Positions 1 to 30,059 of a stretch of 64,000 bases of DNA are shown here, one piece after another. Position numbers and translations under genes: made by a program. Numbering within the stretch: the first letter of the stretch is position 1; the number at the start of each line of letters is the position of its first letter. Under the pieces are notes generated by a model that had not been told where the DNA came from, ran no database searches, and worked only from the letters and a program-made list of their open reading frames with translations. This DNA is from an uncultured Verrucomicrobiae bacterium (GTDB taxonomy: Bacteria > Verrucomicrobiota > Verrucomicrobiia > Limisphaerales > Palsa-1400). Location: the NCBI GenBank assembly GCA_963702845.1, contig OY969763.1:3232001-3296000 (forward strand), written 5' to 3'.

Positions 1-348
1 GGACGCGTGAGTGACGCTGTTGATCGGGAACGGCGTGTGATTGTTGGCGACGCCGTTGAGATGGTTGTAGCGTCCGGTGAGGAACGCGGCACGGCTGGGC
101 GCACACAGCGAACTGGTGACAAAGGCGTTGCGAAAGCGCACTCCCTCCGCCGCAAGTCGGTCCATATTGGGCGTCTTAAACCATGGAAAGCGCCCATGCT
201 CACCTTGTTCGCGTTGCACAACGCTCATCGCATCGTAACGCTGGTCATCAGTGTAAATGAACAGGAAATTAGGCCGCGCATCGGCGGCGGGAGCGGCCTG
301 AAGCATCGGCGCAAGCAGTGAGCAAAGGAGCAGAATAGTTATTCTCAT
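1..348 (-). CDS. Sulfatase (formylglycine-dependent, S1 family), 5' part; runs off the window edge
   Basis: Manual minus-strand translation from ATG at 348: MRITILLLCSLLAPMLQAAPAADARPNFLFIYTDDQRYD...KTPNMDRLAAEGVRFRNAFVTSSLCAPSRAAFLTGRY. Signal peptide, PN-hydrophobic-DD motif and CxPxR...TGR sulfatase signature. Absent from the ORF track. Confidence 0.95.
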   Translation of the reverse strand, partial: MRITILLLCSLLAPMLQAAPAADARPNFLFIYTDDQRYDAMSVVQREQGEHGRFPWFKTPNMDRLAAEGVRFRNAFVTSSLCAPSRAAFLTGRYNHLNGVANNHTPFPINSVTHAS

Positions 349-432: not shown

Positions 433-578
433 GCCATTCGGATCTCTCGATCTTTTTTTACATTGGTGAGAGAAGGTTTATGCGATGCGTGAAAACGCGC
501 CGCCATATCGACTCGTAAACTCAAAGAATCCTAAGAATCCGTTAGCGAACTGTTGTCGTTCGCTTACATATGTGCCGG
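433..578 (+). repeat. Dispersed element, module A copy 1 (multi-hairpin segment)
   Basis: gccattcgg...ggtgagagaaggtttatgcgatgcgtgaaaacgcgccgccatat...aaactcaaagaatcctaagaatccgttagcgaactgttgtcgttcgc...gtgccgg aligns by eye with 23185-23495 and 28360-28502. Confidence 0.9.
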
Positions 579-8175: not shown

Positions 8176-8269
8176 GGGAATTCGCGCGGCACATTCTTGC
8201 GATTTCTTTCCCGGCCTCATATCTTAATCAACTCTGCAGTGCAGGGTTCGATCGACCGGCCCAACTCAT
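8176..8269 (+). repeat. Dispersed element, module B copy (promoter-like sequence plus hairpin)
   Basis: TTGCGA-17 nt-TATCTT at 8197-8225, then aatcaactctgcagtgcagggttcgatcgaccggcccaactcat, matching 18405-18436, 23116-23162 and 28292-28337. Confidence 0.85.
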
Positions 8270-14108: not shown

Positions 14109-14182
14109 AAAAATGATAGATGGGATGAATGCTGGCGGGTGTGCAACGAAGTTGCTACGTCCACCAGCATATGAATAACTAC
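14109..14182 (+). repeat. Dispersed element, module C copy 2
   Basis: aaaatgatagatgggatgaatgctggcgggtgtgcaacGAAgttgctacgtccaccagcatATGaataac: imperfect hairpin ending directly before an ATG. Confidence 0.9.
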
Positions 14183-14255
14183 AAGGTCCTAACACTTTGC
14201 TTTTTCTACGCTGGCGCGGTGACACCGGCTACCGCTCGCAATTGACATCCAGCGA

Positions 14256-17121: not shown

Positions 17122-17221
17122 AAAAATGATAGCTGGCATGAATGCTGGCGGGCGTGCAACAAAGTTACTGCGTCCACCAGCATATGAATAACCATCAGGA
17201 AAGTTCTAGCTCTCAAGTTTG
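17122..17221 (+). repeat. Dispersed element, module C copy 3 (empty site for the MITE at 17914)
   Basis: aaaaatgatagctggcatgaatgctggcgggcgtgcaacaaagttactgcgtccaccagcatATGaataaccatcaggaaagttcTAgctctcaagtttg. Confidence 0.9.
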
Positions 17222-17715: not shown

Positions 17716-17827
17716 AATAGGACGATTAAACTGGTTGTCTTGGCGGGCGGCAAGAAAAACGTAGGGAGAACACTGACATTCACTGTGAATTATTAGTCTA
17801 AGCGTTGCAGCTGCAGTCCAAAAAAAT

Positions 17828-18436
17828 AAATGATAGACGGCATGAATGCCGGCGGGGGTGCAACGAACTTGCTCCGTCCATCAACATATGAACCTACCAC
17901 CAGGAAAGTTCTAGAGTGATTGCCAAAAGTAATTTCGGGAAAGGTGAAGCGGGGAACCCGGCAGTGCTAGGCGCGAGTAGCATCCGCGAAGCGGTGCAGC
18001 GACTATACAGTTCTGACTGCGCGCATGTCCTCATGGACCTGTAAGGAACGAGCAACAACGCAATGCCGGGTTCCCCGCTTCAGCCGTAGGCCGGGGGGCT
18101 TTTGTCTTTTGGCTTCCTTGTCGGTCTCGGCAAGATCCACCAGGGATATTGACTTCGATCTCCGCCTCGCCAAAAACCAAAATCCCTCCCGCCATTCCGG
18201 AAATTAAATTTGGCAATCGCTCTAACTCTCAAGTTTGAGCAAGTCGCAAGCAAGCTTTCAACCCAACCCAACACACCAGCAGATCAAGCTCGCCTCCACC
18301 AGTTACGTCTAGCACTGAGCGGGCAGCGACAGAATTGTGGGCGAATACGCGGAAATTGTGCAGCTACGTCTTGAAATTCTTTCTGAAAGATCCGAATCTC
18401 TTCCTGTCAATCAACTCTGCAGTGCAGGGTTCGGTT
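17828..18436 (+). repeat. Dispersed element, modules C and B in tandem, interrupted by a MITE
   Basis: Module C at 17828-17913 resumes at 18223 (taactctcaagtttg). Module B at 18293-18436 is closely similar to 23003-23147. Confidence 0.85.
17914..18222. mobile_element. 309-bp MITE with ~28-bp imperfect TIRs and a TA target duplication
   Basis: Left end gagtgattgccaaaagtaatttcgggaa versus reverse complement of the right end gagcgattgccaaatttaatttccggaa (4 mismatches). TA at 17912-17913 and 18223-18224. Empty site visible at 17201-17221. Internal 22-bp inverted repeat at 17945-17966/18061-18082. Confidence 0.9.
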
Positions 18437-23002: not shown

Positions 23003-23495
23003 CCTTCACGAGTTAAGTCTAGCCCCGGGCGAGTAGTGACAGAATTGTGGGTGAATCCGCGGAAATTGTGCAGCTACGTCTTGAAATTTTTTCTGAAATA
23101 TCCGAATCTCTTCCTGTCAACCGAACCCTGCGGTGCAGGGTTCGGTTGACCGGCCAACTCATTCCGGTGGAATGCAGCGCCACCGCCATTCGGGCCTTTC
23201 TCGGTGAGAGAGGGTTTATGCGATGCGTGAAAACGCGCCGCTCATATAACTCTTGAGCGTATAAAAAAATTCTGTGGCTGTTCGGAGCGAGGATTTTTGG
23301 AATTTGGCGAGGCTTTGACGAAGGATCATACCCGCAGCGGTCTGTGACTGAGTCGAAACGAAGCCAAAACTCAAAAAGACCGCTCTCCCCTCTGTTCAGC
23401 CGAATGGACACAGCATTTTTTTATACGCTCTGAAACTCAAAGAACCCTAAGAATCCGTCAGTGAACGGTTGACATTCGCCGACACAACATTCCGG
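23003..23495 (+). repeat. Dispersed element, modules B and A in tandem, interrupted by a MITE
   Basis: Module B matches 18293-18436. Perfect 16-bp stem gtcaaccgaaccctgc-ggt-gcagggttcggttgac at 23116-23150. Module A matches 433-578 and 28360-28502. Confidence 0.9.
23255..23430. mobile_element. 176-bp MITE with 22-bp TIRs
   Basis: gagcgtataaaaaaattctgtg (23255-23276) and cacagcatttttttatacgctc (23409-23430), 21/22 complementary. Absent from the other A copies. Flanks are TT/TG, so there is no intact TSD. Confidence 0.88.
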
Positions 23496-23880
23496 TTTGG
23501 CACTTGCAGATATTTCGTCGCGATTGCTCTTGTCATAGAAAATGTCAAACATAAGATTCATTCATCCTAACTCTACTGCACATCGGAGCGGACTTGTATG
23601 CGTTCAACGCATCGGCACGGTAATAGGCATAGACAAAAGAATTAATCAATCGGAAGACATGGACGGGAATCAAATCCTTGGCCCTTCACATTATGAAAAC
23701 CATCACACTCCTCGCTTTAACGTTTCTGAGCGTCTGCTGTATTAACGCTTCCAGAACCATCTTCGCGGGCCGGGGTAACTATGGAAGCACCGGCAGCGCG
23801 GCGCGGTTCTAATTACCCGAGAACGTTACCACTGCCTCTACCGGACAATCCTCACCGTCGATATTCCTCCAAAAAAAGCT

Positions 23881-26800: not shown

Positions 26801-28095
26801 TCACCTATCAATGGAAGAAAGACGGTTCACCGATTGCCAACGCCACCGATTCGTCCTATTCCAAGGTGAACATCACCACGTCTGATGCTGGCTTTTACAG
26901 CGTCGATGTCACCGTCGGCGGTACCACTCCCAGCGATCCGGCGATGATCACCGTCAGCAATCTCGGCATCATCACTCAACCGCTCTCACAAAACGGCGTG
27001 GTCGGCACTACCAACACTTTCACGGTCGTTGCCGCAGGGACGCCGACGCTTCGCTATCAATGGCTGAAAAACGGCGTGAAGATTCCCAAAGCCACAAATT
27101 CCACGTGTGCCATCAAGGTCGCTGCGACCAGCGGAGCAATTTATTCGTGTGTGGTCAGCAATGGACCGGTTTCAACGGTGACCAGTTCTGGCGCCGCTCT
27201 CGCCATTTATGCGAAGACCACCATCACCAACCCGGCGAACAACAAGAACAAGACGCCAGGCAACAACGTGACCTTCAAAGCCGTTGGCCACGGGACCGGC
27301 ACGCTCAGCTACCAATGGGAATTCAATCCAGGCACGGGATTCGCAGGTCTGTCCGACAGCGCCCGCATCATCGGCTCCACTTCAAGTAACCTGACGATCA
27401 TCAACATTCAGTCAGGGGATATCGGAACCTACCGTTGCACTGCGGCTAATGTCGCCTCTTCCGCCACGTCGGACGGTATCGCGCATGGTATCTTGAGCGA
27501 GATTCCAGACGCCACCGCACCGGTCGTGACGATCCTGGCCCCGCTGAACAAGGCCAAAATGACTAATGGATTGGCTGTGACCGGCCAGACGAACGTCGCG
27601 CCCGAGGTTGATATCTCCGGCAAAGCGGTTGACAACGGATTGATCACCGACGTCACCCTGACACGAACAGTGCCGTTGAGTGCTGGCACGGCTGCCGTCA
27701 TGACTCACTCGAAACCCGGCAAAGTCACCTGGACCAACCATGTGACACTGGTGGATGGCACCAACACCTTTGTCGCCATGGCGACCGACTCAGCCGGCCT
27801 CATCGGGACCAGTGTCGCCCGGACCTACTACTTGCTCACACCGGCGACTCTTGCCGTCAACATCACCGGCAACGCCGGCAAGAGCAAAGTAGTTGGAAAA
27901 GCCTCAGCCTTTGGCACCCCGACCAACGGTGTGTCGTTGGACATCGGCATCGGCTACACGATCACAGCACAGCCGGCGGCGGGCAAAGTGTTCCTCAACT
28001 GGACCGACGCCTTCGACAATATTCTCACGACGAGCAAGACAAACAACTTCATCATGAGCAGTGGTTTGATGTTGAAAGCGAACTTCGCTCCGTAA
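23881..28095 (+). CDS. Secreted Ig-domain protein with delta-60 repeats, a cadherin-like beta-sandwich and DUF5011-like repeats
   Basis: Signal peptide; Ig (YQWKKNG...DAGNYTV); SVAVQSDGKVLIGGxF...IARLNSDGTLD repeats; LSPTFASGTITY domain; ECH...DPGATAxD.C...GxYTLTY repeats. Confidence 0.9.
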   Translation: MKIQSMSSCKMFLAILALAMLIGMPMAARATVTISTQPVSLALTLGDQAVFNVTASGAGTLAYQWKKNGNSIGGATLAYLLINPVAFSDAGNYTVDVTDTGGTVTSSAAGLGVNSPKSGSLDFSFAGGSVVDGTIQSVAVQSDGKVLIGGGFSTVNGTSRNFIARLNSDGTLDTGFGNGLAGADSTVNSVAVQSDGKVLIGGAFTTVNGTARNGIARLNSDGTLDTGFGNGLAGAIAVVSVAVQSDGKVLIGGGFTTVNGTARGSIARLNSDGTLDTTFGNGLVGANNTVRSVAVQSDGKVLIGGDFTLVNGTASGRIARLNSDGTLDTTFGNGLAGANNMVFSVAVQSDGKVLIGGIFLTVNGTVRAYLARLYNDSSADADLSALTLGSGSLSPTFASGTITYSNAIALSANSLTVTPTSSAASAVIRVRVNGGGYATVASATPSSALPLNVGPNIIEVQVTSAGSTVVKTYSVTVNAVDTNAPVITLSGNASVTAECHTSYIDLGATATDDFAGSVAVTPGGSVDINSVGDYTLSYVATDPSGNSATNTRAVHVVDTTAPNITVTGNDPLIVECHGTFSDPGATASDTCAGNLTGSISTSGSVNANAVGSYTLTYSVSDGFNSTSATRIVTVGDSIAPSVTLNGAPDVTVECHGVYTELGATASDSCDASVTTATITGGSVNANLAGDYTLTYSATDSAGNNSSSTRVVTVSDATPPTVVANATNVIVECHGTFTDAGATVGDTCDSNPVVVTNNPVNDDTVGVYTVTYTATDAGGNSASATTLVTVSDTQAPIISVLPGAVTTECHGSYTDPGATANDACEGSVSVNTSGTVDVNTVGDYTLTYSATDSASNASISYRTVTVADTTAPLVTLNGGDSTICQLSSYSEAGATANDSCEGNLSVTVTGSVDPGTVGAYTLTYTATDSSNNSGSQIRVVNVIACTPVISVQPQSQNLIASQTLTLSVTASGTGITYQWKKDGSPIANATDSSYSKVNITTSDAGFYSVDVTVGGTTPSDPAMITVSNLGIITQPLSQNGVVGTTNTFTVVAAGTPTLRYQWLKNGVKIPKATNSTCAIKVAATSGAIYSCVVSNGPVSTVTSSGAALAIYAKTTITNPANNKNKTPGNNVTFKAVGHGTGTLSYQWEFNPGTGFAGLSDSARIIGSTSSNLTIINIQSGDIGTYRCTAANVASSATSDGIAHGILSEIPDATAPVVTILAPLNKAKMTNGLAVTGQTNVAPEVDISGKAVDNGLITDVTLTRTVPLSAGTAAVMTHSKPGKVTWTNHVTLVDGTNTFVAMATDSAGLIGTSVARTYYLLTPATLAVNITGNAGKSKVVGKASAFGTPTNGVSLDIGIGYTITAQPAAGKVFLNWTDAFDNILTTSKTNNFIMSSGLMLKANFAP
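24289..25000 (+). repeat. Five intragenic delta-60-type repeats, 153-156-nt period
   Basis: tccgtggcggtgcagag(c/t)gatggcaaggtgctcatcgg starts at 24289, 24445, 24598, 24754 and 24910. Confidence 0.9.
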
Positions 28096-28115
28096 GCAGG
28101 CGGAAGAATATTTAA

Positions 28116-28149
28116 AGCGCCCTCGATGCAAATCGGGGGCGCTCTTTTT
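28116..28149 (+). terminator. Intrinsic terminator
   Basis: agcgccctcgat-gcaa-atcgggggcgct followed by ctttttg, 20 nt after the stop at 28095. Confidence 0.8.
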
Positions 28150-28226
28150 GTTGGTAACCCCATGTGCAGTGCCAAGGTGCAAGCAGTAGTAACGACCTGC
28201 TCGGAATTACTTCGACTTCTTACGAC

Positions 28227-28502
28227 CGAATACGCCGCAATTCTCAAACATTTTCTTGCATTGTTTTTTAAGATTTATTAAATATTTTCCTGTCAATCAA
28301 CCCTGCGGTGCAGGGTTTGTGCGACCGGCCAACTCATTCCGGTGGAATGCAGCGCCCCCGCCACTCGGGCCTTTCTCGGTGAGAGAGGGTTTAAGCGAAT
28401 GCGTGAAAACGCGTCCGCCATATAACTCTAGAACTCTAAAACTCAAAGAATCCTAAGAATCCGTCAACGAACTGTTGTCGTTCGCTGACACCAACGTGCC
28501 GG
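28227..28502 (+). repeat. Dispersed element, modules B and A without a MITE, 30 nt upstream of the HTH gene
   Basis: cgaatacgc...TTGCAT...cctgtcaatcaaccctgcggtgcagggtt...cattccggtggaatg...cctttctcggtgagagagg...gcgtgaaaacgc...ctcaaagaatcctaagaatccgtca...gtgccgg. Confidence 0.9.
28292..28502 (+). ncRNA. Candidate structured RNA or 5' leader (~210 nt), family unknown
   Basis: Five consecutive hairpins: three with c-GGT-g loops and one with a GAAA tetraloop. Several stem mismatches are G-U pairs on the + strand. A promoter-like sequence lies upstream. Transcription has not been shown. Confidence 0.4.
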
Positions 28503-28532
28503 CGTTTGTACCGGCTTTGAAAGATTGCAGCT

Positions 28533-28943
28533 ATGCACACACCAGAGACCGTCCGTCGTTTTGTCGAACTCCGCGCCCGCGGTTGGACCTATGCGCGCCT
28601 GGAGACCGAACTCAATGTCACCAAACCCACCCTCATCGACTGGAGCCGCAAGCACCAGTTCGAGATCCAAAACCTTCACGCTATCGAGCTCGAAGCGATG
28701 CGCGCAAAGTGGCTCGCCTCGACATCGGAACATGTCGATGCCGTGGGCGAACAGTTGCGCCGTGTCGAAACCGAGCTCGCCACCCGCAATCTCACAGAAC
28801 TAACCACGCCTCAACTCATGAGCGCTGCCCGCAACCTGCGTCGCCAGATCGAGCAAGCCACCGGCCCGCTCCAGTTCAGCGTTCCCGTAAACGAAATTCC
28901 TTCCGCCGAATTCCATGAACAGGTCCAGGATTGGAAAGCCTGA
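28533..28943 (+). CDS. Small N-terminal helix-turn-helix protein with a helical C-terminus
   Basis: FVELRARGWTYARLETELNVTKPTLIDWSRK fits an HTH (helix, turn LNV, recognition helix ending in W), followed by coiled-coil-like helices. Confidence 0.8.
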   Translation: MHTPETVRRFVELRARGWTYARLETELNVTKPTLIDWSRKHQFEIQNLHAIELEAMRAKWLASTSEHVDAVGEQLRRVETELATRNLTELTTPQLMSAARNLRRQIEQATGPLQFSVPVNEIPSAEFHEQVQDWKA

Positions 28944-28959
28944 ACCACCAAATCGGTTG

Positions 28960-29126
28960 CCGGTAAAGAAAAGGTAAAGAAATGGTAAAGTTTTTATCGG
29001 TCGGGCGTGCGTGCGAACCGGACGTTCCGGACGCGCGCGCCGCTCTTCGGAGGTCAGGTGAGTAAACGTAAGTTGCGCTGTCGGACGTTCCGACCGGTAA
29101 AGAAAAAGTAAACAAATGGTAAAGTT
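28960..29126 (+). repeat. Two 33-bp direct repeats of 11-bp-periodic (G/A)GTAAA flanking two related palindromes
   Basis: 28960-28992 ccggtaaagaaaaggtaaagaaatggtaaagtt and 29094-29126 ccggtaaagaaaaagtaaacaaatggtaaagtt (31/33 identical). Palindromes ccgga-cgt-tccgg at 29018-29030 and gtcgga-cgt-tccgac at 29080-29094. Confidence 0.9.
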
Positions 29127-29943
29127 CCAGCCCATGCTCCGACGTCGACGCGATGCATCTCGCTCCGTTGTGCGACGGCACGTTCATTACCACATGCGTC
29201 GTCTCAACCGCCCGTGCCTTCGGAATCTGCCCGGCTACCGGCGCGGTCCCGACGACTTATCTAAAGCCATCACTGCCATGAACCGCGCCATCCGCGCCCA
29301 TCGCCGACTAGCCAAGCTGGCTCCTGAAATCTTCGACTCTACCGAAGTGAACCGCCTCGCTCACCGCCGCAGGCAAGACGCCGAATGGCAAGCCGTTTGG
29401 GAACCCGCACTGATCGAAGTCTACGGACCGTCTCCTCCCGAAGAGTCCCATCGTGACCCTTTAGCAGACCAACCACAGTTACCACGATGTGCTCGCACCC
29501 GACGTGTCATTGAGCGCGAATACGCCGAATGGAAATTCTGGATGGAAGCCAGCCACATCGCCCAAAAACGCTACCAACAACGTCGGCCTCATGCGCTGCC
29601 GTCACTCTGCCAACTGGCCCGACTCCTTGATGCCGCGATGACTCTCGGCCGTCTCGCCTGCGGATCGTTCAATCCCGCTTCAGAACCGCCCGCCCACGCG
29701 CAAGCGTTGACAGATCTCAAACGCGCCTACGGCCCCGAAGCTTTAGCCGCAAGAGAGGCCGAAGCTTTGGAGAGACAGAAGGCTGCGCCGCCCCCGCAAC
29801 CGCCTCCAGTTCCACCCCCACCTTACGCCGATACAAAAAGAGACATCATCCAGGTTCCTTTGCCACCACGCCCCCTTCCGCGAAATCGGGCCGACGAACA
29901 CCCGGTTGCGCGCCTGTTTAACGACCTGTTCGGAGTGCAATAA
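29116..29943 (+). CDS. Hypothetical Arg-rich, helical protein with a Pro-rich C-terminus
   Basis: 275-aa ORF starting inside the second direct repeat. Weak internal echo (LIEVYGP / LKRAYGP). No recognised family. Confidence 0.55.
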   Translation: MVKFQPMLRRRRDASRSVVRRHVHYHMRRLNRPCLRNLPGYRRGPDDLSKAITAMNRAIRAHRRLAKLAPEIFDSTEVNRLAHRRRQDAEWQAVWEPALIEVYGPSPPEESHRDPLADQPQLPRCARTRRVIEREYAEWKFWMEASHIAQKRYQQRRPHALPSLCQLARLLDAAMTLGRLACGSFNPASEPPAHAQALTDLKRAYGPEALAAREAEALERQKAAPPPQPPPVPPPPYADTKRDIIQVPLPPRPLPRNRADEHPVARLFNDLFGVQ

Positions 29944-30059
29944 CAAATTCACGTGGTCCAGTCAGGAATGCCTCCTTCCGTCTGTGTCCATCTGCGGTGA
30001 CTCAATCAGATTGACTAACCCCCTGTGCATATTAATCTCCGCTCAATTCTCCAGAACGA

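Follow-up and report, generated by a model that had tools for sequence, protein, structure and literature searches.

A structured leader RNA with repeated GGN triloops, and a predicted translational switch, ahead of an accessory HTH and terminase-related gene pair in Verrucomicrobia

Introduction

Upstream of a short helix-turn-helix (HTH) gene in an uncultured Verrucomicrobiae bacterium lies a promoter-like pattern followed by a series of hairpins, several of which display the same GGT loop. The question raised by this locus is whether the region is an RNA and, if so, what that RNA does for the genes behind it. We analysed the locus within a window of 64,000 nucleotides (contig OY969763.1, positions 3,232,001 to 3,296,000); coordinates refer to the window unless a genome position is given.

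Here we describe a structured and apparently undescribed leader, which heads an accessory pair of genes, one for an HTH protein (ORF1) and one for a protein related to phage terminase small subunits (TerS; ORF2), in one order of Verrucomicrobia; the mRNA of the two genes probably starts with it. The reading that we favour, with a probability of about 0.58, is that the leader is a translational switch: a multimeric protein docked on repeated C-GGN-G loops would shut one of the hairpins, P4, and thereby turn translation ON. The pairing of P4 with the Shine-Dalgarno (SD) region and the second gene are absent from the preliminary description of this DNA; added here are the predicted translational switch and, in the window copy, an SD deletion.

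Results and Discussion

Layout of the leader in the window

The leader occupies 28292-28532 of the plus strand, from GTCAA to the ATG at 28533, and is thus 241 nt long rather than the previously estimated 210 or so. It is preceded by a sigma70-type promoter pattern (28256..28285, +), with -35 TTGCAT at 28256-28261, an 18-nt spacer and -10 AAATAT at 28280-28285. GTCAA starts at the seventh base past AAATAT, as had been noticed, and the hexamer pairs with 17-nt spacers reported at 8197-8225 and 23081-23109 are there as well; the transcript 5' end is predicted near 28292. The pattern is weak in this copy, in which a strict consensus scan detected no promoter, while homologues mostly have a near-consensus -35 TTGACA. 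Scored as TTG[AC]nn-16..18-nAnnnT-5..8-GTCAA, it is carried by 25 of 36 homologues and, among the 13 genome copies whose 5' end is intact, by 11; the genome background is 39 of 5750 GTCAA sites, the leader copies being counted among the 39. A terminator-like hairpin of the upstream Ig-domain gene (28116..28143, +), which is a consensus match of a kind that shuffled sequences yield in equal numbers, would insulate the leader promoter from that gene.

The plus-strand features that follow begin with P1 (28292..28325), a GUCAA...GAC helix around the first C-GGU-G triloop hairpin (28301-28315), drawn from alignment and covariation. Next come a conserved CGGC and P2 (28326..28356), here in a short form with the second GGU triloop (28335-28349); at this site long homologues have a three-way junction carrying two GGN hairpins. 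The 3' G residues of the P3 hairpin (CCCG/CGGG, 28357..28369) start the anti-SD strand (28367..28377), which consists of the 3' end of P3 and the 5' strand of P4 and resembles the host 16S tail. P4 itself (28370..28388), the third GGU triloop hairpin, is the predicted ON-state helix, exclusive with anti-SD:SD pairing. Beyond the variable hairpin P5 (28395..28418) lie AACUC repeats (28424..28444), the predicted OFF-state partner of the P4 loop and 3' strand, replaced by AACC in homologues whose P4 carries G at the corresponding place. Two more variable hairpins, P6 (28463-28489) and P7 (28498-28515), together spanning 28463..28515, would bring the anti-SD near the SD, of which a residual SD-like GAAAGA is found in 28519..28532, with a 15-nt segment missing at about 28529/28530. 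The hairpins quoted in the preliminary description, at 28301, 28335, 28370, 28401 and 28463/28480, are all present.

A conserved RNA structure on the plus strand

The 136-aa ORF1 protein, used as query, led to 30 loci in genomes, 25 of them titled Verrucomicrobiota; with the best 80 of 138 metagenome loci this makes 110 HTH loci, mostly from Verrucomicrobiota. Five loci (L001, L011, L021, L027, L028) are titled Bifidobacteriaceae or Thermoleophilia yet carry the Verrucomicrobia-type unit, probably through binning or titling errors. The alignment consists of 38 leaders, of which 36 are non-redundant and were picked by motif from the 110 loci, the others being L018 and the window copy. It backs eight helices: 96.6% of 2040 cells are paired, compared with 40-48% in slid controls, and double changes occur at 29 of 56 base pairs, a level reached in 0 of 500 shuffles. 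RNAalifold arrives at these helices as well, differing only in where the short CGGC helix is registered. No double changes were seen in the short helix closing P2, which is hence the least certain.

The region 28288-28532 taken alone folds better on the minus strand (z = -5.1, versus -2.4 on the plus), and the assignment of the leader strand therefore rests on the homologues and not on the 28-kb copy. Among the leader pairs G-U outnumbers A-C by 357 to 19, which settles the RNA strand as plus; the leader core is more stable on the plus strand in 38 of 38 leaders, with median z of -3.0 versus -1.7 on the minus. Of the 110 HTH loci, 66 match a covariance model; 37 of these were used in its training, several are near-duplicates, and every match is on the plus strand upstream of the HTH gene. 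The suspicion that a structured plus-strand RNA leads into the HTH gene is borne out by this distribution, by the covariation and by the G-U excess. As established by comparison of the homologues, a conserved, covarying plus-strand structure holds a fixed place between the promoter pattern and ORF1.

When the RNA rather than the protein was the starting point, the model matched 9 places, which fall in 6 of the 150 further genomes of the order that were searched, with the HTH gene behind 5 and absent behind 4; in 150 other genomes of the phylum, with 20 candidates scored per genome, it found 0. A motif search identified 9 places in 7 of 401 genomes, several of them the same DNA as earlier loci, with an HTH gene after 8 and a stub after 1. 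In viral contigs the window-type motif had 0 matches and the long-type motif 10, none matching the covariance model. Rfam 15 has no match at gathering score in the window, and E-value scans of 10 loci and of window positions 28000-30000 gave nothing credible over the leader RNA, so that no Rfam family matches the leader. The titles and abstract openings covered by a literature search do not describe it, while supplements of motif surveys could list it. A likeness of the minus strand to SRP helix 8 was considered and rejected (no Rfam match, wrong strand). Downstream of one unit, at L035:1680-1725 (-), there is a match to the Acido-Lenti-1 RNA above gathering score.

Loops and junctions are conserved across leaders while stems drift. 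With few exceptions, P1b, P2a, P2b and P4 have a GGU or GGG loop on a closing C-G pair; there are four such C-GGN-G hairpins in long forms, and three in the window type and other short forms. Deviations are single loops, for example GCT in P2 of the intact copy at 2.55 Mb, and CGC and CTG in homologues. The junctions CCGGCAAARAC and GUGGCUGCUUCC are invariant or nearly so, and this constancy favours a riboswitch in which the same expression platform is governed by a 5' aptamer domain that binds a small molecule or an ion, with the two junctions as the pocket and the GGN loops as tertiary contacts. Translational riboswitches combine an aptamer with an SD-sequestering element, a layout that the leader fits. 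However, the short form (window, L127-L135) has a different junction, GGN arms number from three to four, and either can be dispensed with (L042, L067, L076), and a single gene family is found behind the leader, with no metabolic genes; we consider an aptamer unlikely.

The gene pair and the accessory unit

ORF1 (28533..28943, +) encodes a 136-aa protein with an HTH and long helices, from a large unnamed family (2049 clusters at 50% identity). ORF2 (29116..29943, +) encodes a helical protein of 275 aa with an Arg-rich N-terminus (13 of the first 44 residues). GGTAAA-type repeats at 28962..29123 (+), in two sets of three with an 11-bp period (28962/28973/28984 and 29096/29107/29118), are candidate DNA binding sites; the last overlaps the start of ORF2, and phased 11-bp repeats of this type follow ORF1 in 87 of 97 loci versus 0 of 55 control windows. 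An ORF1 paralogue of 33% identity is present in five copies (G000:C1:812791, 877386, 1163814, 1556891, 2104811), which have the same arrays without ORF2; in four of them the upstream region is different.

Within the genome, the C-terminal part of ORF2 has matches in genes that PHROGs assign to terminase small subunits. Five such TerS genes directly precede TerL, three identified as TerL by the scan and two read as such from like sequence. Aligned with the TerS of the resident primase-TerS-TerL elements, ORF2 gives 95.8% in hhalign (E = 7e-9, 79 columns), and by these sequence comparisons the TerS oligomerisation region has a homologue in the C-terminal part of ORF2. A direct PHROG scan of 36 ORF2 members was blank; the ORF2 model has no N-terminal HTH, and there is no neighbouring TerL gene at the loci. 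A terminase origin is supported for ORF2 only. The likeness of ORF1 to TerS is weak (hhalign 15.9%; top PDB row Sf6 TerS, E = 0.84) and may be generic; a TerS PHROG is found in 15 of 57 family members and HTH_23 in 45 of 57. Structure comparisons gave no match for ORF1 at E ≤ 0.001 in PDB or BFVD, and for ORF2 none in BFVD, a blank in the ESM Atlas, and otherwise generic helical bundles only (best Z 8.3, rmsd 4.0, 79 aligned); the PDB sequence search was uninformative. Related phage-like elements, at least five in number, lie at 2.25, 4.83, 4.30, 1.71 and 0.13 Mb of G000 (L161, L162, L164, L165 and L166, respectively); in these, replication genes lead directly into TerS and TerL. A TerS-like gene also stands by itself at 5.40 Mb (L163), and 3.86 Mb has a fragment of ORF2.

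The window copy and the copy at 2.55 Mb share 1.7 kb at 87.6% identity, from the -10 region to the ORF2 stop, and these two full units have no terminal repeats and no target-site duplication. ORF2 recurs in 77 of the 110 loci, many of which end early, and no third gene is found in more than 4; integrase, primase and attachment sites do not recur across the 110 loci. The unit is accessory, since ORF1 is patchy: within the family 3 of 30 other genomes have it, and at the level of the order 18 of 150. Viral contigs contain no relative of ORF1 or ORF2, and named phages no match to ORF1.

These data bear on the two kinds of mobile element that the preliminary description brought up. The first is a guide or bridge RNA (IscB omegaRNA/HEARO, or IS110 bridge RNA), suggested by the resemblance of the GTCAA opening to omegaRNA ends and consistent with a dispersed, patchy unit. 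Against it, besides the lack of an Rfam match, the leader adjoins a 136-aa HTH protein and a helical ORF2 rather than a nuclease gene, and no nuclease or recombinase gene recurs in the 110 loci. A genome-wide search for RRXRR was blank, and so was its control. The 4 IS110 recombinase matches in the genome lie away from the leader copies. Instead of a variable 5' guide the RNA begins with an invariant GUC 5-8 nt past the -10 hexamer, and instead of variable internal loops that might match insertion sites there are conserved loops on varying stems, the opposite of a guide. This explanation is largely refuted, and we give it next to no weight. The second is an element acting only as DNA (an IS end, REP-like sequences or single-strand hairpins), which would account for the many partial copies in one genome and for the well-folding minus strand of the 28-kb copy; it is very improbable in view of the G-U excess, a promoter conserved at a fixed distance, the multibranched fold, the SD pairing described below, and the absence of terminal repeats or duplication from the full units.

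Copies of the leader in the genome

The genome (6.03 Mb, one contig) contains 17 full or partial leader copies at E < 1e-5, of which 13 are clustered at 3.12-3.26 Mb; a clustering at the origin or terminus was rejected, as the skew extremes are near 4.7 and 2.15 Mb. The 5' end is kept in 13 of the 17, and an intact HTH gene lies behind 3 and behind none of the other 14; partial copies stop at scattered points and some have altered loops. Genome-wide there are 7 places where three C-GGN-G stem-loops fall within 160 nt, each of them a copy of the leader element; the 15 other loop classes have 0 such clusters.

The window has a second near-complete leader copy (23081..23506, +), with no SD or HTH gene behind it, broken by a 176-nt insert with terminal inverted repeats (23255-23430). 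These repeats are 31 nt long, and a second copy of the insert, 95% identical, is found at G000:C1:3128015-3128190; it is absent from the rest of the genome, sits at an identical linker point in both leader copies, begins with GAG and finishes with CTC, adjoining AACTC. The repeated GGT loops reported for several copies are a property of the 28-kb copy but not of those at 18371..18435 (+) and 8197..8269 (+), which retain only the promoter and the first hairpin with an AGT loop, the latter without GTCAA. A decayed 3' fragment, from the P4 3' strand to P6, lies at 465..578 (+). Four leader fragments precede large genes (8596, 18609, 23881, 809) in the same orientation and 200-770 nt away; these encode secreted repeat proteins and one hybrid kinase, and the fragments may act as promoters for such cargo genes.

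Other arrangements were observed around the copies. Deletion derivatives in two genomes (G000:C1:319049-319700 and 3125636-3124830; L158:1397-1760) retain promoter, RNA, SD and the first few ORF1 codons, and then jump to the GGTAAA repeat region. A ACTACTCGCCC-type repeat with an 11-bp period is found in either orientation upstream of the promoter in several lineages (L002:3581-3690, L001, L042, L105, G000:C1:2550829-2550860, and, in reverse form, window 23029-23039). A separate intergenic repeat family has three copies of 76-88% identity in the window (14109-14186, 17122-17199, 17826-17903), and more elsewhere in the genome.

Predicted anti-SD:SD pairing and two-state fold

The anti-SD strand reads GG(U/G)CCUUYYC, close to the host 16S tail CUCCUUUCU, and complements the SD region before ORF1. 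In 60 leaders the duplex of each anti-SD with its own SD has a mean energy of -13.4 kcal/mol versus -11.9 ± 0.26 for permuted partners. A CCUU:AAGG anchor is present in 44 of these leaders, and the 16 without it, the window copy included, were dropped; Watson-Crick pairs at the four variable positions number 88 versus an expected 71.8 ± 3.7 (33 haplotypes). At position 3, U is opposite A in 25 of 25 scored rows (2 unscored), while G (30 rows) is opposite C in 7, U in 6, A in 14 and G in 1 (2 unscored): G alone has pyrimidine partners (13 of 30). On the tree the G-C state is scattered over about five places, one of them nested among U-A neighbours. In a second OFF helix, between the P4 loop and 3' strand and the linker, the pairing types are G with AACC and A with AACU (G:C 37, A:U 11, mismatched 6, unscored 6; n = 60), with compensatory linker states in about three tree places; a cruder duplex test is weak here (own -13.9, permuted -13.5, p = 0.04; shuffled -14.4). 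Because the rows are related and the compensatory states fall in only about five (SD) and about three (linker) places of a poorly resolved tree, the pairing P values overstate the case. Part of the complementarity could also be incidental, as any SD-like purine run pairs with the pyrimidine-rich P4 strand. Short-form leaders at L133, L135 and L137 (G125) are followed by a AGAAAGGC segment complementary to the anti-SD, and then by a reading frame that does not match ORF1.

Ensemble folding predicts P4 in 44 of 44 nascent transcripts ending just after P4, in 26 of 44 transcripts ending before the SD, and in 7 of 44 full-length leaders, versus 29 of 44 when the SD is shuffled; in a slightly different set, whose no-RNA control included three RNA-bearing loci and many loci without SD, it is predicted in 5 of 45 full-length leaders. 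The predicted OFF fold opens P3 too. Taken with the partial covariation, these models suggest that P4 and the anti-SD:SD duplex are mutually exclusive folds and that the default would be OFF. Transcription attenuation was considered and rejected, since there is no U-run after P4, and so was a leader peptide starting at the conserved GUG-GCU-GCU, which shows no third-position variation and whose start is lost in L035.

The order in which the helices are predicted to appear would also suit a kinetic timer without ligand, in which P4 forms first, ribosomes load briefly, and the RNA then refolds to the SD-sequestered state; the Levivirus maturation leader provides a precedent (PMC4615214). Such a timer offers no account of why the P4 loop recurs in P1b, P2a and P2b, nor of the invariant upstream junction, and we find it quite unlikely.

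On the tree of the HTH protein the leader was gained or lost 13 times, at least 8 of them forced by supported branches, and 25 of 92 proteins with enough upstream DNA have the genes without the RNA; the gains and losses indicate a swappable control module rather than an obligatory cofactor. At 2.10 Mb of the genome the leader is grafted onto the 33%-identical ORF1 paralogue, where a 10-bp anti-SD pairing is formed with a different upstream segment. The repeated gain and loss, together with this graft, argue for a cis-acting control module. The opposing possibility is that the RNA works in trans, either as scaffold or partner of an ORF1/ORF2 ribonucleoprotein, much as a packaging RNA does, or as a sponge; pairing with the SD would then be incidental and the promoter-bearing fragments extra sources. 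In its favour are the 5' ends kept in most genome copies, 14 of which have no intact HTH gene behind them, the four of nine model matches in other genomes that likewise have none, and the Arg-rich end of ORF2. It is nevertheless rather unlikely, given the persistence of the genes without the RNA through at least 8 independent changes, the lack of a terminator between the leader RNA and ORF1, the scattered end points and altered loops of the fragments, and the SD covariation.

The window copy lacks the 15 nt that hold an AGAAAGG SD in its nearest relatives, and in ensemble folding it retains P4 at 0.90. We thus predict that it is a relaxed variant of the switch, tending ON through the loss of the SD segment.

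Proposed mechanism and candidate ligands

The translational switch would work in four steps. Transcription of the sigma70 type would start from about 28292, as the conserved promoter pattern suggests. P1, P2 with its arms, P3 and P4, whose structure is backed by covariation, are predicted to fold while the RNA emerges. With no ligand, the AACC/AACUC linker would take up the P4 loop and 3' strand, leaving the anti-SD strand free to capture the SD (OFF); for both events there is partial covariation. With ligand, the stable upstream GGN hairpins would dock an oligomeric protein, which would clamp the GGN loop of P4 and set translation ON.

That the identical loops bind one protein, as had been proposed, is plausible. 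Since the genome has no other GGN clusters and no CsrA was found in it (the assembly is 89.8% complete, and the control for this search was detected in 3 of 14), the ligand is most likely specific to the element rather than a host-wide regulator. Arginine-rich motifs can bind RNA, and candidates include the Arg-rich end of ORF2, ORF1 (with either of which the loop would be one of positive feedback), or a related protein of a phage-like element, such as TerS. A bolder version, which we hold to be doubtful, is that the leader senses through its GGN hairpins the TerS ring of a phage that infects or is induced, or the unit's own TerS-like ring, and turns ON a split, TerS-mimicking pair that joins and poisons or redirects the packaging motor; the unit would then be an RNA-gated module for anti-packaging or hitch-hiking, without an integrase of its own.

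Few new classes of cis-regulatory RNA let a two-state mechanism be seen. The design of this one, with identical docking hairpins of which one doubles as the switch helix, lends itself to testing, and nature supplies the material: dozens of variants, a graft onto another gene and an SD deletion. If the ligand is a protein oligomer, the leader would be an activating, protein-sensing one; if it is a phage terminase, RNA regulation would be linked to packaging interference. The leader also opens a way into two large protein families, as yet unnamed, of a bacterial order that has been little studied.

Comparison with known systems

Several hairpins showing one G-rich loop are also characteristic of the CsrB/RsmZ RNAs and of CsrA-bound leaders, but the loops are here mostly GGU/GGG triloops, not GGA, and the genome search found no CsrA. 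With translational riboswitches and protein-bound leaders, such as those of ribosomal proteins, the RNA shares a conserved 5' domain, an SD-sequestering platform and association with one gene family; it differs from them in having no Rfam match, and in being by prediction OFF by default and activated on binding. Most autoregulatory leaders repress. The homology of the ORF2 C-terminal part to TerS, and the HTH and long helices of ORF1, recall the TerS packaging modules of phage satellites (SaPI TerS, PICI Rpp), from which the unit is set apart by the absence of recurring integrase, primase and attachment sites and by the weak likeness of ORF1 to TerS (15.9%). We know of no RNA switch for such modules, and the titles and abstract openings searched for one mention none.

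Like IscB omegaRNA/HEARO (PMC13565253) and IS110 bridge RNA (PMC11208160), this is a structured non-coding RNA in a dispersed element, with a protein gene downstream or next to it; unlike them, it has no IscB, TnpB or DEDD recombinase gene, no guide segment, and no target- or donor-binding loops. The mRNA of the type I toxin aapA3 of H. pylori is an accessory-gene mRNA held off by SD-sequestering folds, with metastable intermediates (PMC6733600), and in this it resembles the predicted OFF state, whereas here HTH and TerS-related genes lie downstream and no small toxin ORF or antisense RNA was identified.

A further parallel is the 5' UTR of the Levivirus (MS2) maturation gene (PMC4615214), a multi-hairpin leader in which an upstream strand pairs over a long distance with the SD, a transient alternative fold permits translation, and the long-distance helix covaries. 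Unlike that leader, the one described here is encoded in chromosomal DNA, has its own promoter pattern and an unrelated sequence, and repeats one GGN triloop three or four times, with an additional conserved domain upstream.
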